Shown piece after piece: positions 734-17,705 of a stretch of 44,441 nt of DNA (the stretch's first letter is position 1; each line of letters begins with the position of its first letter). The position numbers and the translations under genes were made by a program. The DNA is taken from IMG/VR virus record IMGVR_UViG_2778261530_000005, one strand, 5' to 3'. Origin of the DNA: a virus (Duplodnaviria; Heunggongvirae; Uroviricota; Caudoviricetes). The notes under the pieces are model-generated. The model saw only the letters and a program-made list of their open reading frames with translations. It was not told the DNA's origin and did no database searches.

Positions 734-1810
734 TCAGAGCAGTAAGTACGTTTTTTCTCTCTCATCAAGATACATTTTTGTTGTCTTCTCCGATGTGTGG
801 CCAAGTAGACGCTGAGCAAATTCTTCTCCACATGTTTCTTTGTATAATCGTCCAGCCAGGCTTCTGATCTCGTGAAAAGTTGGTGGGTTTTCACTGAACT
901 GGATACCTGTTAATTTTCTGGCTGCGACAAATTTTTTTGTCAGGCCGTCCGGGTGAATGCTGCCGTCAGGGCTGTTTTTTCTAATCCCGGCACTGATTAG
1001 AAAATCTCCCCGGCTTACCAGGCGGCACCGTTCAACTACTGTACCAAGACGTAAACCAGCGACCGGAAGGCTGAGTGACAGGGGGATAGCAATCATCATT
1101 CCTGTCTTAATTTGCCTGATGTGAAGACGATCATCATAAATATCACTGAACCGCATATTCGTTATGTCTTCGCGACGTTGTCCTGTTACAAGGGCTAAGT
1201 CCATAGCTAATGGGAACCATGCCGGAAGTTGATCTGCTGCCTCCCTGATGCAGTTGTATGTCTTTAGTTTCAGCCGTTCTCTTGTAACTACTATTTTCGG
1301 TGCTCTTGTTGGCGTTACTGGATTTTGAGATATACGCCCTTCAACAATGGCTTCGCGGAACATATCAGATAACACAGAACGCATTGATCCTGCCATCGTG
1401 TTTTTCCCTCCTTCAATCCACAAATCAAGAAACTCGGCAATATGGCGAGTGGTTATTTCTGTCAGTAAGATCCCTCCTAATTTTTCTTTTATTGTTTCCA
1501 GTTGATTTCCCCGAATTTTATAAGTATTTCTGGACACTTTTCTCCTTATAAGAATCGTTTTGTAACGTTCAATCCAGTCTGCCATAGTAAATGAGTCGAA
1601 CCCTTTAAGTTTTTCAATTAAGGCAGCAGGAGAGTAGTTTTTGTATATATAATGATTTGCTTCAATTGCCTGCGCGATTGCATCTCTTCTTGAAATTTTA
1701 CCTAGTGTAAATTCTTCTTTCGTAAGAGGGTTGCGCCAGTAATATGCTTTGTCCCTCCTTCGATATGTTAAGTTCCTAGGCAAATTGGGATCGTATTTTT
1801 TCCGCTGCAT
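734..1810 (-). CDS. Tyrosine site-specific integrase (lambda Int family)
   Basis: 358 aa; N-terminal arm-binding-like region and C-terminal catalytic region resembling lambda Int (…[11 protein letters not shown]…[17 protein letters not shown]); adjacent to attL and transcribed toward it. Confidence 0.9.
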
Positions 1811-2063
1811 GTTTTAACTTCTCCAGTAACGGACTGTCTCTCCCTTGTCGCCCATTAGGCTGATGGTGTGTTATATCGGTATCAACCTTATTTGGGTTGA
1901 TATAGAAAGCCTCCGGAACCACCCTGTAACTCCTCCCGTGTAGTTCAGGTGCAGGATAAATGTTTCCATTCCTTGCCCATCGTCTCAGCGTTGATATTGA
2001 TGGTGGGTTATCCGGATATCTGAGTTTTCCCCACGTTTTGAGTGTCACAAGATTCATTGCCAT
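1776..2063 (-). CDS. Excisionase (Xis/AlpA-like)
   Basis: 95-aa ORF immediately upstream of and overlapping int; basic winged-helix-like sequence (STLRRWARNGNIYPAPELHGRSYRV). Confidence 0.55.
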   Translation of the reverse strand: MAMNLVTLKTWGKLRYPDNPPSISTLRRWARNGNIYPAPELHGRSYRVVPEAFYINPNKVDTDITHHQPNGRQGRDSPLLEKLKHAAEKIRSQFA

Positions 2064-2163
2064 ACCTCTTACGATATGACCGCCAGTAAATATACAGAAT
2101 ACTGGCGGACGTGATTGATTTTTAATAATCAGCTATGAAGTTATAATTTGGATATAATGCAAC

Positions 2164-2352
2164 TCACGAGGGCCGAAGTTTCTCGCAATTAAAATTTATC
2201 AGCTTTACTTTCTGCTCTCTGGAAACGCCTGCTTCTTTTTTCCCCGAGAGCATTTTTTCGCATTCTGATTTAGTTAGTTTAGATTTTGAATATCTTGTCC
2301 AGTTAGTAGGAGTGCCACCTTCCTTTTCAATAGTGGCGGTAATTTTATACAT
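2164..2352 (-). CDS. Small hypothetical protein in the Rac ydaC position
   Basis: 62 aa from internal Met (MYKITATIEKEGG…); overlaps the upstream ralR-like stop by 8 nt. Confidence 0.4.
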   Translation of the reverse strand: MYKITATIEKEGGTPTNWTRYSKSKLTKSECEKMLSGKKEAGVSREQKVKLINFNCEKLRPS

Positions 2353-2539
2353 GAACACCTCCATTATTATTTCCAGTGGTTCGTTTATTCCATCGTTCGA
2401 GTGCTTCTTTTTCACTTCCACCATAGCCGGTTCGGGATTCGCATCCGTTACACTTCGCGCGGTAATATCCTGAAATGGCTTTCACCGTTACTGATGGACA
2501 ACCACAAAAAGGGCATGGTTTGACTTTTTCATACCGCAT
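2345..2539 (-). CDS. ralR: Lar/RalR-like restriction-alleviation protein; in Rac this is a type I toxin (DNase)
   Basis: 64 aa from MRYEKVKPCPFCGC…; paired CxxC zinc-ribbon motifs; length and sequence match my recollection of Rac RalR. Confidence 0.65.
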   Translation of the reverse strand: MRYEKVKPCPFCGCPSVTVKAISGYYRAKCNGCESRTGYGGSEKEALERWNKRTTGNNNGGVHV

Positions 2540-2602
2540 TGTCTTTTCTCTCATATAATAAAGTTTTGTGATGGCGGTGAGGCTACACCGCCAAAGTCAA
2601 TA

Positions 2603-3706
2603 TCAGGAGCCGATATATTCTGGTTTCATATCTGTCAGTGTCGTTTTATACGCCTCATATAATTCACCCAGATGTGGTCGTGCAGCATTCAGCGTATTTT
2701 CCAGAGCAGTAAATTTTTGTTCTGCTTCTGGATCACCTGATGAAGGCAGGTCATTTATCATCTTCTCGATACTGGCAATAGCATTGAGACGGTGATGACG
2801 CCGAACCACTTTTCCTTTAAGCTCGGCAAAGAATTCGCCGATCTGGTTTTTCTGATCCTCTATCTCTTGGCGTAATGCAGTGGTTTCCTCAGTCGTGGCC
2901 GCGCTTTCTATACGCTGCCGGAATTCATCAATCCACGCTTCGTCAATACGCTGTTCGATGGTTTCTGTTCGCTGCTCGCTTACCTCGCTATAATTCTGTA
3001 CCGACACAGGATTGATGATTTTTTCCTGTGGCTCTTCCAGTTCGTCCGGGGTATACACGCCCAGGATGACGTCAGGACAATAAAGGCGAGCCCAGTATTT
3101 CAACGCCAGATAGGCGAGCTGTTGTTTCGGGTTTGAGGTCCATAAAGGAGAATTACGCGTAATCACGCTGGAAAGAAACACCGGTTCTCCCCAGGTAATC
3201 TCACTTTCACCGCGAAGAACTGCACCAACTCGAACTGAGAGACCATACTCATCTTCACTGGTCCAACATGGGATCGTTTCTTTTTTCTCATAGATTCCGC
3301 CTCCTTTGGCCGTTTTCTTAACGATCTCCACTCGGGTGCGAGAGCATTTCTCCCAGTCTCCCTCGTACTTGTAATGGAAGCGACCTACAATTGCACTTGA
3401 GCTAGAGATCACAGCGTTAACCAGTTGTGCTTCATAACCCAGAACTCCGTTTACCAGGTGTGTTTTCTGAGCCACAGCGTAGGGGTTCATGCCCCATTGC
3501 ATAGCTTGCATGATGATTGCCATGCAGTCGGCAGGATTTCCGCGAAGGTGATCGGGAACTGTGACGGTGGCCTGTGCCATCAACCCGGCTACTGCCTGAA
3601 GTTGCGTCAACGCCTGAACGTTAAAAATAGTGTTACTGGCAGAAATGGTATTTGGTGTCTGCTCTGTCGTGATGATATTGGTATTTTGCATGGTCAGGTT
3701 CTCCAT
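2603..3706 (-). CDS. Single-strand annealing recombinase, RecT/Redbeta superfamily (putative)
   Basis: 367 aa directly downstream of the RecE-like exonuclease, start ATG overlapping its stop (TAATG); RecT/Redbeta-like core; alternative start at 3691. Confidence 0.6.
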   Translation of the reverse strand: MENLTMQNTNIITTEQTPNTISASNTIFNVQALTQLQAVAGLMAQATVTVPDHLRGNPADCMAIIMQAMQWGMNPYAVAQKTHLVNGVLGYEAQLVNAVISSSSAIVGRFHYKYEGDWEKCSRTRVEIVKKTAKGGGIYEKKETIPCWTSEDEYGLSVRVGAVLRGESEITWGEPVFLSSVITRNSPLWTSNPKQQLAYLALKYWARLYCPDVILGVYTPDELEEPQEKIINPVSVQNYSEVSEQRTETIEQRIDEAWIDEFRQRIESAATTEETTALRQEIEDQKNQIGEFFAELKGKVVRRHHRLNAIASIEKMINDLPSSGDPEAEQKFTALENTLNAARPHLGELYEAYKTTLTDMKPEYIGS

Positions 3707-6700
3707 TAAGCCAGATGCAGTGCTTCAAGACGACGAAGATCAAAGTCGTTTAATTCGTCGGTATAACTTTCGGTAATCGGTGCTGGCCAGTTGTTTGTCT
3801 CTAGAGCTTCGTTTATCTGGCGTAGCGTCCGGCGATATTCCTGTCGACCAAGTTCAAGGAGTTCCTGCGAGGCTTCCACGACTGCCACCCAGTGATAGCC
3901 AGCATCTTTGTTGACGAAGATCCAGAAAAATTTGTCCAGGTTTGCCACATCGCAATACATTGCGGCGCTGAGGTGATAATCACGCTCAATAATTTCACGG
4001 TGCAGGCGATCTTTAAGTCGTTCCTGCCGCACATAACCGAGGCTGACTGACTTCACGTCAGCGCAAATGCTTTCGTATGGCAGCCGGATTTCGATATCAG
4101 GACGGACCCTGATTTCCAGCCCGGTTTCTTCATCAAACCCGAAATAGCTGATTTCAGATTTGCGATCCGGGTGGTTGAGTAGCCTTGCTGCATCGGTATT
4201 GTTTTGCAGTGCCGCGTGAATATTTTTTGCCTGTTCATACATATCCGGACTGATAAACGTTTTCCCGGCGTTTTCTTCTTGCTGGCGTTTTTGCCAGTCC
4301 TCCAGTGTCACCAGTTCCGGGCGAATTTTCCGTGCGATTTCGGTTAATTGCTCTTTTGTGCCACTGATGTTGTAAGGCAAAGATTTAGCACGTTCTTTTT
4401 TTGCCAGTTCTGGATCTACAGTTTCAATTTGATCCAGAAGCTGCTCCCGTGCTCCACTGGTTTTCAACAGAGGAGGGAGGCTTGCGTTGTATTCTTTAAT
4501 ACAGGCTTTCATTGCTGATGCTGTGTGTTTTTCCCCCTCAGGAATACGCCGAAATTCCACCGGAAGCGAACCGTAAAGGATGCCTGTTTCTTCGGCCCCA
4601 GCACTTACAGACAGTGGCTGTATAAGAGTGCTGTTGTAGCTTTCGATCCACTCTTTCATCTGCTCTGGTGTCATCAGTGCTGGCAGACTGGCATTGTGTT
4701 TTTTAATGATGGCGATCAGTTCGTTAGAAGTAGTAACCACATATTCAGGAACCGGTACCGGAATGGCATATTCATCTGCGAATTTATCCGTTTCCAGAAC
4801 ATAGCTGTGAATGATCCGCCCACGCAGCAGTGCGTCACTTTCCTCGTTCGGAATAGTTCCGGCAATGTGCCGCCCGTGGTAATACATCAGGCTGATACGG
4901 GCATCCTTCAGCATCGTGCTGCTTATTCCGTTGGCGGAGTGATAAACCTCGTTCGGGAGGTTTTCATAGCGGCCTGGCTCGAAATATGACGGCCACATGA
5001 TTTCAGTTGCTACAGGAGCTGACGCTTCGCCAGTTTCATCACTGCAATTGCGATGCGGATCGCTGTCAGCATTCTCATTGTGCTGATGTTCAGCGCCTTC
5101 CATTTCCTCCGGATCTTTTTCCAGAGATTCATCCAGATTTTCTTCATTAAATGTTTCCTGATACGTTGCGTCGCCCATCGCCGCGCCACAATCAGGGCAG
5201 TTGCCCCCACCGATCTGACCGCAGGCGGTGCAGACTTTTTCCGGTTCTTGTTGCTCTTCTGGTTCAGGCTGTTTCGTTTCTGGCTCGTTTTGTTGCGTAT
5301 TTGGGCTGTTTTGTTCCGCTTTCTTGTCGTTCTGTTCCGTTTCTTGCTGGTTCTGGTTCACAGAGTCGAGGGTTTCAATCCCCTTAACCCATTTCGGATC
5401 GTTCGGGTCGCTAATCCCTTCAACAAATTCTCCGCGAGAGGCAGCCAGTAATTTGTCTGCATCGACAGGATTTTTGGGCGGAATGTTTTTCCGGGCTTCA
5501 TGGAGTTCTGCCCGCAGTTTCTGATATTTCGCATCAACAGAATTTACCTGTGACTGAGCATCCAGCGGCTGCGTGTTCTGATGATGTTCAGTTGCATTCG
5601 GTTCCACTGTTTCAGCCGTTGCCTGTTCATCTGCCATTGCGCCAGATGGTTGTGGTTTTTCTTCATCGTCCTGTTTTCCTTCTTCTGTTACTCGCTGCGG
5701 CATCGGGGCAGAGGAGCGACCGCAGGCAATATCCACGATTTCCGGATCAGGGTTGGCATGATCGGTTTCAGTCAGTACTTTGTTCAGATATTCAGTGACG
5801 TGTGCGGGGATGACCTCGATCCCAATTGGTGCTTCTTTCACGGACGCAACCACGATGGCGCGGGAATAATCCAGCCCGCCAGGCATGGTGATGAATTTGT
5901 CGCGGAAAACAGAAAAGGGTGGTTTATTTTCAGCGATAATTTCCTCAATGCGTTTAGCGTGTGCCGGATGAAGGTTATAAATGTCCACGTCCATTGAACG
6001 GGCCAGTACGCCAGTGGCTACATCGCGTGCCAGTGACGTCAGATCGTGGACGAAACCTTCGCCGCGATCGGTGAGGTTCCCGCCGCCAGCATTAGCACCG
6101 GAAGCCGTGCGAGTGATGCGTGAAACACGATTTCCTTTCATCCACTCTTTTGTCAGCAGACCGCGATCGGTGTAGTCTGCGTCCAGGTATGCTTCGAAAA
6201 AAGCAGTCATCAGCCCCAGACTTGAATTGCCTGGATTAGGGAAAACTTTGTCAGTATCACGAACCAGTCTGTGAAGATCGCGAATCTCCAGCGGGTCGAG
6301 CAGGCTGGTTTTGTGGGAAACAGCTAGGGCAGTAACAGCTGGTAGTTCTTCGGCCCGTGCAATATGTAATGTCTGGAGTTCGTCGCGTGAAACGTGCGTT
6401 ACCGGTTTTTCGCTGCCGTGTTGAGCAAGCCAGCGAATGGGCAGCTCTTGGCCAGAAATCGGGAGTAGCATATTCTCCTCAATCTCAGTCATGTCTTCGC
6501 CATTAACATTGGTATTGTCAGTGCTGTCTGGTTTGTCCTGCGCAGAGGATGAGGGCGCGATAAATACCATTGTGATGCCATCTTCCCCGCCTTTTTCGTA
6601 ACGGTTGCAGAATTCCGTATCAAATACGCCTTCTGGTGGAAGGTCATCAACAACGGGCAAATTGACGCGAACAGGTTTTTTAAAGTCATCTTCATCGTAG

Positions 6701-6855
6701 CCAGCATCGTCAATCGCAACAGCACCACGGGAGATGGCAATGGATAATTTTTTCGCTTCAGCCCAGTAGAAACCGCCTTTAATACCGAGACGTTTTCTTA
6801 CTTTGTCATTTTTTGCTTCGTAATACAGTGGGTAAACTTGTTTATCGGTGCTCAT
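3706..6855 (-). CDS. recE: Exodeoxyribonuclease VIII (RecE-like) with C-terminal PD-(D/E)xK nuclease domain
   Basis: 1049 aa; internal segments resemble my recollection of Rac RecE; C-terminal YqaJ/RecE-type nuclease region; translationally coupled to the annealase. Confidence 0.7.
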
Positions 6856-7696: not shown

Positions 7697-8091
7697 AATT
7701 ATCTCCATTTTTACAAATGAATTTTGTCGATGCGGTGCCTGGTGCCTCCAGGTGACGTTAACCAGTTAACAATTAACGCCGGATAATCCACCCATAACAC
7801 TGATGCTTTTAACTGTGCCGCGTGCGCTTAGCCGCATTCACCGCATCACAAAATTCACTTTAAAAAGGGGCGGCAGGGCAGCCACGGAGTAGAACTGATG
7901 CCGCCAAAGACTAGACACAGCAATGTCGTTATTTACAACCGGAGGCGCACTCCCACCATTTAAATTTAACAGACAAGACCGACTCTTTATGAATACCGGA
8001 AATGCGCCTTCGTGTTGTGCGCCTGTCTTTTTACCACTTCAGGCTCGGTGGTATACTGGAGTTCTCACACAACCAGTAATAAGGTATTCCT

Positions 8092-15146: not shown

Positions 15147-15356
15147 AAACGGTTTGCGGGAAAAGGGGAGTTAAGTAAAATTGCTGCGGGTGCTTGAGGC
15201 TGTCTGCCTCGGGCATGCCACTGTAAGGCAGACAGAGAAAAGCCCCGGTTAACATTACGCGTCCTGCAAGACGCTTAACATTAATCTGAGGCCATATCTA
15301 TGCTCTACACACATAGGTTAGCCTCTTACGTGCCGAAAGGCAAGGAGAAGCAGGCT

Positions 15357-15512
15357 ATGAAGCAGCAAAAGGCGATGTTAATCGCCCTGATCGTCATCTG
15401 TTTAACCGTCATAGTGACGGTACTGGTAACGAGGAAAGACCTTTGCGAGGTACGAATCCGAACCGGCCAGACGGAGGTCGCTGTCTTCACAGCTTACGAA
15501 CCTGAGGAGTAA
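15357..15512 (+). CDS. Hok/Gef-family type I toxin (HokD/RelF-like)
   Basis: 51 aa MKQQKAMLIALIVICLTVIVTVLVTRKDLCEVRIRTGQTEVAVFTAYEPEE: single transmembrane helix plus conserved Hok C-terminus; AAGGAG ribosome-binding site. Confidence 0.75.
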   Translation: MKQQKAMLIALIVICLTVIVTVLVTRKDLCEVRIRTGQTEVAVFTAYEPEE

Positions 15513-17435: not shown

Positions 17436-17461
17436 CTCAATCTGTTATCCGGGGCTATATT
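17432..17461 (+). promoter_or_regulatory. Candidate late promoter PR'
   Basis: TTGACT (17432-17437, overlapping the Q stop codon), 18-bp spacer, TATATT (17456-17461). Confidence 0.55.
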
Positions 17462-17522
17462 CCTCACGCGCCAGCAAAATCTGGCGTCGGGATTGGCGTC
17501 CTGGATAGAGACCGCGACAGAT

Positions 17523-17548
17523 ACACGCCGCGAGCGTGTTTTTTATTG
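17523..17548 (+). terminator. Candidate tR' terminator, about 60-80 nt downstream of PR'
   Basis: ACACGC-CGCGA-GCGTGT hairpin followed by TTTTTTATT. Confidence 0.55.
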
Positions 17549-17705
17549 TCGTATGCACGCGCACATCTGAATTATGGTGGGCTGTGTGGGGGCGGAGAGA
17601 TCCGCGCCGGTCGGTTTCCCGGTTACGCCAACCCTGCACAGTTCACCACCAGATGATTGGCGTCGTCGGTGGTGAGTTATTAAGAAACCACCAGAGGGCG
17701 TCATT

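Follow-up and report, generated by a model that had tools for sequence, protein, structure and literature searches.

The ralR locus of a complete Rac-type prophage carries an orthologue of the RalA antitoxin RNA gene

A gene for a small cysteine-rich protein lies beside recT in the 44,441-nucleotide window (the whole stretch of DNA that was analysed), and the question it raises is whether it is accompanied by an RNA gene that a list of open reading frames cannot display. A sequence-only reading had matched the protein, 64 amino acids long, with a pair of Cys motifs and encoded at 2345-2539, to RalR (Lar) of the Rac prophage, the toxin of a type I toxin-antitoxin pair, and had expected an unannotated antitoxin sRNA on the plus strand around 2100-2560. 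The protein is indeed RalR, and an orthologue of the RalA sRNA is found on the plus strand at 2168-2346. The locus is very probably a RalR/RalA type I toxin-antitoxin locus of a Rac-type prophage, with RalA acting as it does in Escherichia coli K-12. It is an already described locus, with a known curated sRNA family in its canonical context, and nothing in it is new.

The window contains a complete Rac-type prophage with head, tail and lysis genes, situated between yebY/ryeA-sdsR and pphA, and the locus stands at its left (int-xis) end. The genes on the minus strand over window positions 734-6855 follow the order recE-recT-ralR-ydaC-xis-int, and the features of this part are:

734-1810, minus strand: tyrosine integrase gene (int)
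1776-2063, minus strand: excisionase gene (xis)
2164-2352, minus strand: ydaC/rcbA (DUF1187), 62 aa; Pfam PF06688, 131 bits
2168-2346, plus strand: RalA sRNA (RalR antitoxin), 179 nt; assigned by Rfam RF02694, identity to K-12 ralA and synteny
2345-2539, minus strand: ralR (lar), 64-aa Cys-rich protein; assigned by K-12 identity, Pfam, NCBIfam and the RefSeq annotation of identical DNA
2603-3706, minus strand: recT
3706-6855, minus strand: recE

A prophage of E. coli BCE049 is 99.95% identical to the window from end to end, and 1922 of 5426 complete E. coli genomes match the 1-kb stretch that holds the locus (window 1700-2700). The prophage differs from K-12 Rac in being complete and in its position. 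An overlapping sRNA pair, SraC/RyeA at 462-606 on the minus strand and SdsR/RyeB at 503-602 on the plus strand (Rfam 180 and 118 bits), lies just beyond the left end, the integrase gene ending at 734, and this places the prophage at yebY/ryeA-sdsR and not at ttcA, the site of Rac in K-12. Both sRNAs are left without annotation by PGAP in the BCE049 record.

RalR of the window is identical to E. coli K-12 RalR at 62 of 64 residues, the sole differences being D4E and N5K, and its cysteines occupy positions 9, 12, 14, 30 and 33 (CPFCGC...CNGC). It matches the NCBIfam RalR equivalog NF007260 with 163 bits (cut-off 113) over residues 1-64 of 64, and the Pfam family Lar_restr_allev PF14354 with 53.2 bits (cut-off 28.6). 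Residues 14, 37, 39, 49, 51 and 52 were reported as necessary for the toxicity of K-12 RalR (PMC4041452), and all are unchanged here, since only residues 4 and 5 differ. Over-production of the K-12 protein reportedly led to non-specific nicking and cutting of DNA; the authors described it as toxic and as a DNase in vitro, with a K52 mutant serving as the inactive control, and saw no influence on restriction (PMC4041452). By analogy with these published results, the window protein may be considered a non-specific DNase toxin. A sequence search of the PDB with RalR returned no solved structure of any relative and spurious chitin-binding matches only. The limits of 2164 and 2554 within which the sequence-only reading placed the locus are mechanical ends of open reading frames: the ydaC stop codon ends at 2164, and 2554 belongs to an upstream in-frame ATG that would give a 69-aa version of ralR. 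The start used in RefSeq and in K-12 is the position equivalent to 2539.

The RNA was identified by Rfam family RF02694 (RalA) with 221.2 bits (gathering 170, E 7.7e-53) over model positions 1-179 of 179, a match whose strength, judged from sequence orthology, lies far beyond chance. Aligned to the Rac ralR/ralA region, the antisense sequence proved conserved: the K-12 ncRNA ralA (b4714) occupies the syntenic position and is identical at 173 of 179 nt (97%), with substitutions at RalA nt 5, 7, 36, 75, 78 and 105. Nucleotides 5 and 36 change jointly (A-U in K-12, G-C in the window), and nt 7 makes a C-A mismatch. A second RalA copy was ruled out by the Rfam scan of the whole window, which gave a single match. 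RalA is convergent with ralR, overlaps it by 2 nt at the ralR stop codon, and is entirely antisense to ydaC/rcbA. The offsets are identical in K-12 (L001: ralA 2557-2735, ralR 2734-2928, ydaC 2532-2741), and K-12 Rac RalR/RalA (b1348/b4714, RF02694, PMC4041452) shares the order int-xis-ydaC-ralR-recT-recE, the overlaps and the target; ydaC of the window ends 7 codons earlier than that of K-12 (62 aa versus 69 aa). The sRNA had been foreseen as adjacent to and partly antisense with ralR. The adjacency is confirmed; antisense complementarity to the ralR coding sequence amounts to the 2-nt overlap.

The expectation that such an RNA would escape annotation agrees with the public records. In E. coli genomes annotated by PGAP, ralR bears the label of a type I toxin and its RNA antitoxin has none. 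For the BCE049 prophage stretch, 99.95% identical to the window, PGAP gives no ncRNA anywhere, so that RalA is unannotated there. The curated Rfam model finds RalA at once, and this is the point of the locus for annotation.

In K-12, RalA exerts its effect on ralR in trans, and its nt 63-78 are complementary to ralR nt 123-138 (Guo et al. 2014, PMC4041452). Four changes made together in the ralA repeat (mutant M1) destroyed antitoxin activity, which came back once ralR was altered to match; the effect required Hfq, the ralR mRNA was not reduced on RalA induction, and the evidence comes from plasmid over-expression (PMC4041452). The corresponding elements of the window are:

2230-2245, plus strand: RalA 16-nt pairing element (RalA nt 63-78), TGCTTCTTTTTTCCCC; K-12 version TGCTTCTTTTTTACCT
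2402-2417, minus strand: RalA target in the ralR coding sequence (ralR nt 123-138, codons Ser42-Ala46), AAGTGAAAAAGAAGCA, identical to K-12

The pairing core at 2230-2241 retains 11 contiguous Watson-Crick pairs and one adjacent G-U pair, as in K-12. Over the 16-nt element as a whole, 12 Watson-Crick pairs and one G-U are formed in the window, compared with 14 and one in K-12; the pairs lost in the window allele are those at RalA nt 75 and 78, both of them synonymous third positions of ydaC codons. The local duplex is predicted to be no weaker (-24.2 kcal/mol in the window versus -19.8 in K-12) by way of an alternative CCCC/GGUGG contact. Among 300 dinucleotide-preserving shuffles each, an exact complement of at least 11 nt turns up 5 times for the window and 9 times for K-12. 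Full-length RNAduplex predictions between RalA and the ralR mRNA gave unrealistic duplexes of about 170 nt, no better than those of shuffled sequences, and pairing was judged instead by exact-complement length and by in-register pairing.

Scored in 55 E. coli-type haplotypes, the 10-nt core GCUUCUUUUU is unchanged except in two, L078 and the deletion variant L073. L078 keeps 9 of the 10 core nucleotides; two uncompensated mismatches lie at the 5' end of its 16-nt element, and one of these falls within the core. In L073 and L090, both from IMG/VR, an in-frame 12-nt deletion removes RalA nt 59-70, including the pairing core, and ralR is intact; these are natural loci that possess the toxin gene and no antitoxin pairing site. 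The pair between RalA nt 63 and ralR nt 138 is U-A, U-G (6 haplotypes) or, once, a compensatory A-U: the change RalA U63A in L017 is compensated across the two molecules by ralR A138U, and each of the two substitutions is synonymous. In L032 and L167, which have U63A without the change in ralR, the pair is broken. The four nucleotides at the 3' end of the 16-nt element vary freely and without compensation (ACCT, CCCT, CCCC, TCCT and others).

Outside this group the pairing fades. L099, a relative of intermediate standing, shares the gene overlap and reaches a RalA score of 144 bits, below gathering; it keeps ralR and ydaC, and its upstream and 3' hairpin sequences are conserved, but only 8 of the 16 element positions pair, scattered along the element, and its complementarity to ralR of 7-8 nt is at chance level. 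In the Citrobacter-type clade (L009, L010, L093-L097), ralR and ydaC are kept, RalA scores are 29-49 bits, and the longest complement to ralR is 7-8 nt, which is the chance level. Complementarity at chance level outside the E. coli Rac clade indicates that the trans-pairing is confined to that clade. Two loci of the Citrobacter type, L009 (1868-2245) and L010 (1895-2287), possess a Cys-rich open reading frame of 125-130 aa after ydaC and overlapping its end, in the place taken in E. coli-type loci by the ralA promoter region and xis. The E. coli Rac-type ydaC-ralR segment was also encountered, at 95.9% identity, in positions 290-750 of GenBank PP818812.1, a record named 'Actinobacillus phage vB_Apl-pPE4', whose host label looks doubtful.

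The sequences that might start, end and fold the RNA are less distinctive. Those recognised are:

2153-2158, plus strand: weak candidate for the ralA -10 box, TATAAT, read from the sequence
2313-2346, plus strand: RalA 3' hairpin (stem of 6 bp, loop of 14 nt) with GUAAUUUU after it; a literature-predicted terminator

The -10 box, TATAAT in the window and TACAAT in K-12 and L099, stands 9 nt before G2168, the equivalent of the mapped K-12 start, and the upstream region that includes it is conserved in K-12 and L099. No acceptable -35 was found for ralA, and a sigma-70 consensus scan of both strands over 1900-2800 returned no promoter-like site. The 3' hairpin (RalA nt 146-179, 4 U) has a predicted energy of -6.8 to -7.8 kcal/mol and a z-score of -0.43 against shuffles; it was not called by a terminator scan of 1900-2800, in which the sole terminator-like match is at 2735-2751, inside recT, and the minus strand has no terminator-like site. 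For the plus-strand promoter and terminator for which the sequence-only reading suggested a search, the -10 box and the 3' hairpin are weak candidates, and the consensus scans (1900-2800) call neither. For K-12 RalA itself, mapping of the 5' end relied on a plasmid, the 3' end is a prediction only, and there was no Northern blot (PMC4041452). A literature search for independent detection of RalA (RIL-seq/Hfq) found none.

The fold of the whole 179-nt RNA has a z-score of +0.99 against shuffles, and its 5' stem one of +1.05; like the 3' hairpin, neither is more stable than shuffled sequence. For covariation, 88 related sequences (the window, K-12 and 86 loci from IMG/VR or genomes) were condensed to 32 distinct RalA alleles, at most 13% divergent; a scan of genome contigs supplied 9 loci, and most of the diversity came from IMG/VR, which is dominated by near-identical E. 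coli prophages, so that the test is limited. With these low-diversity alleles on the Rfam structure, a double change was found in one of 48 pairs, pair 5-36; this change sets the window apart from K-12, and 7 alleles have the pair broken. Rfam helix 5 is broken in 15 of the 32, and the proportion of paired cells, at this low diversity, is 95.0% versus 94.6% in shuffles. For RalA, the sequence thus gave no independent sign of a functional RNA.

The gene that RalA overlaps presents a different picture. The ATG of ydaC/rcbA overlaps the ralR stop codon (ATGTATAA), with a GGAGG Shine-Dalgarno motif 5 nt upstream of the ATG. Between Citrobacter braakii (L009) and a MAG (L010) the dN/dS of ydaC is 0.05 and third positions account for 19 of the 25 differences; the range reported for the gene is 0.05-0.13. 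Between the window and these two loci, pN is 0.22-0.23 and pS 0.81-0.84, the latter saturated. Among 41 E. coli-type haplotypes pN/pS is 0.11, and not one stop codon occurs. On these values ydaC is clearly a protein gene subject to purifying selection. In the study that established RalA, ydaC was concluded to encode no protein, and YdaC protein proved not to be needed for the antitoxin effect in K-12 (PMC4041452). Synonymous diversity in the E. coli-type haplotypes is 0.164 in ydaC versus 0.152 in ralR; being no lower in ydaC, it gives no detectable extra constraint from RalA.

These observations call for some caution: the RalA model rests on one over-expression study, RalA adds no evolutionary footprint to that of the overlapping protein gene, and that gene, declared non-coding, evolves as a normal protein. 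The classification of the locus is unchanged by them. Beyond it, two points deserve note: whether ydaC is coding, and a RalA pairing that is narrowly distributed and under weak constraint.

Among other interpretations, the one that survives best takes the two coupled protein genes, ralR and ydaC/rcbA, as the conserved unit, kept together across divergent Rac-like elements. In that case ydaC encodes a real protein and the RalA pairing is a young addition of the E. coli Rac clade, one that could have arisen from an 11-nt inverted repeat as both genes encode Lys/Glu-Lys-Glu-Ala. The pairing would be dispensable in nature, given that the deletion and mismatch variants carry intact ralR. This account is possible, and we hold it with some doubt.

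A stronger form, which we regard as unlikely, denies the RNA any role. The stretch would be conserved as ydaC/rcbA coding sequence, the plus-strand RNA would be at most a weak, unselected antisense transcript, the 11-nt complementarity would be a by-product of the A-rich codons for Lys/Glu-Lys-Glu-Ala, and the antitoxin effect seen in K-12 would come from over-expression, with no role at native level. It accommodates the purifying selection on ydaC (dN/dS 0.05; pN/pS 0.11), intact in 41 of 41 haplotypes, with GGAGG as a strong ribosome-binding site and a start codon that overlaps the ralR stop. It also accommodates synonymous sites of ydaC free of RalA constraint, the lack of a meaningful covariation or thermodynamic signal for RalA, sister clades that have no complementarity and whose Rfam scores of 29-49 bits are explicable by coding conservation alone, and the in-frame 12-nt core deletion in L073 and L090 with ralR intact. 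The K-12 experiments, however, bear directly against it: the antitoxin effect survived mutation of the ydaC start codon and an early stop codon, worked from a separate plasmid that expressed the plus strand only, and could be removed by changes in one of the 16-nt elements and regained by compensatory changes in the other (PMC4041452). An exact 11-nt complement is, moreover, uncommon by chance (5/300 and 9/300 shuffles), one natural compensatory pair is found (L017), and the upstream region with the -10 box is conserved even in L099.

The preferred reading remains a RalR/RalA locus in which RalA acts in trans on the ralR mRNA. Following the K-12 model, RalA would be transcribed from a weak promoter whose -10 may be the TATAAT at 2153-2158, and would, by homology with K-12, bind Hfq. 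Its nt 63-74 (UGCUUCUUUUUU) are predicted to pair with ralR mRNA nt 127-138 (codons 43-46). Such pairing would lower the amount of RalR protein and change the mRNA level little, and RalA would guard against leaky expression of the DNA-damaging RalR from an otherwise repressed early-left operon. The 3' end of RalA, its dependence on Hfq and its antitoxin action are drawn from the literature and would apply to the window by analogy. Pairing by an sRNA normally blocks initiation near the ribosome-binding region. The target here is some 125 nt into the ralR coding sequence, which makes it unlikely that RalA simply occludes the ribosome-binding site. The native ralR transcript probably extends through ydaC, given the overlap of the ydaC ATG with the ralR stop and the minus strand without a terminator-like site; RalA would in that case also be a perfect cis-antisense RNA of 179 nt, and only with such a transcript would the description of RalA as partly antisense with ralR hold.

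RalA resembles IstR-1, OrzO and OhsC, the antitoxins of TisB, ZorO and ShoB, in that the antitoxin RNA adjoins the toxin gene without being its full antisense and pairs through 11-21 nt (PMC4041452). In those three systems the antitoxin genes are divergent, pairing takes place in the leader of the toxin mRNA, and the toxins are small membrane peptides. RalA, in contrast, is convergent with ralR, pairs deep in the coding sequence and overlaps a second protein gene, and RalR, unlike TisB, ZorO and ShoB, is a soluble Cys-rich DNase toxin, the DNase activity being that reported in K-12.

It is quite improbable that RalA acts mainly in cis, that is, that ralR-ydaC-xis-int form one transcript on which the 179-nt duplex, a substrate of RNase III, controls the expression of ydaC, xis and int or how stable the operon mRNA is, with a secondary part for the 16-nt contact in trans. 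Several features would suit such an arrangement: the ydaC ATG over the ralR stop is typical of translational coupling, the minus strand shows no terminator-like site in the scan of 1900-2800, RalA lies wholly inside ydaC on the opposite strand, and the trans target is about 125 nt into the coding sequence, far from the ribosome-binding region. In K-12, however, RalA supplied from a second plasmid neutralised RalR from a construct without ydaC, which means that the cis duplex is not required, and the ralR mRNA did not fall on RalA induction (PMC4041452).

RalR is by HMM score a member of the Lar family (PF14354, TIGR03655), whose name refers to the alleviation of EcoKI restriction and in which a toxin or DNase role is reported for the Rac protein only. 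The gene shares an operon with recE and recT. The Rac recE/recT operon is silent under repression (sbcA mutants). Hardly to be favoured is the view that the protein is in the main not a toxin but Lar, a phage factor of the early-left operon that alleviates restriction and would need no dedicated antitoxin in a repressed prophage: the family names, the shared operon, the variants that lack the RalA core and carry intact ralR, and King and Murray (1995), as cited in PMC4041452, count for it, but the K-12 protein was reported to be toxic and a DNase in vitro, inactive as the K52 mutant and without effect on restriction (PMC4041452), and restriction alleviation and toxin activity are not mutually exclusive.

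Several other structured or regulatory RNAs are encountered in the window. Between recT and ralR, about 33 nt upstream of the ralR ATG, a stable GC-rich hairpin at 2573-2592 (GGCGGTG-AGGCTA-CACCGCC, -15.1 kcal/mol, z -3.5) is kept in K-12; it has no T-run on either strand and could be an element of mRNA processing or stability. DicF sRNA is matched at 7868-7919 on the minus strand (55 bits), within the kilR/ydaE/immunity region of the prophage. Matches to isrK, c4-a1b1 and C4 antisense RNA are clustered at 17455-17653 on the plus strand, directly upstream of a gene with an ORF6N domain (antirepressor-like), and the cluster resembles the C4 antisense immunity module of the P1/P7 type. Finally, a second type I toxin-antitoxin locus of the same prophage, hokD/sok, is located at about 15.2-15.5 kb, where a sok match of 113 bits at 15188-15362 on the plus strand adjoins the hokD gene and is again left unannotated by PGAP. 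Like RalR/RalA, hok/sok combines a small prophage toxin gene with an RNA antitoxin invisible to an ORF track, and Rfam finds both RNAs. The sok RNA is genuinely cis-antisense, and both its structure and its target fold are conserved and well supported, unlike RalA, which has no meaningful overlap with the toxin coding sequence (2 nt) and no structural support.
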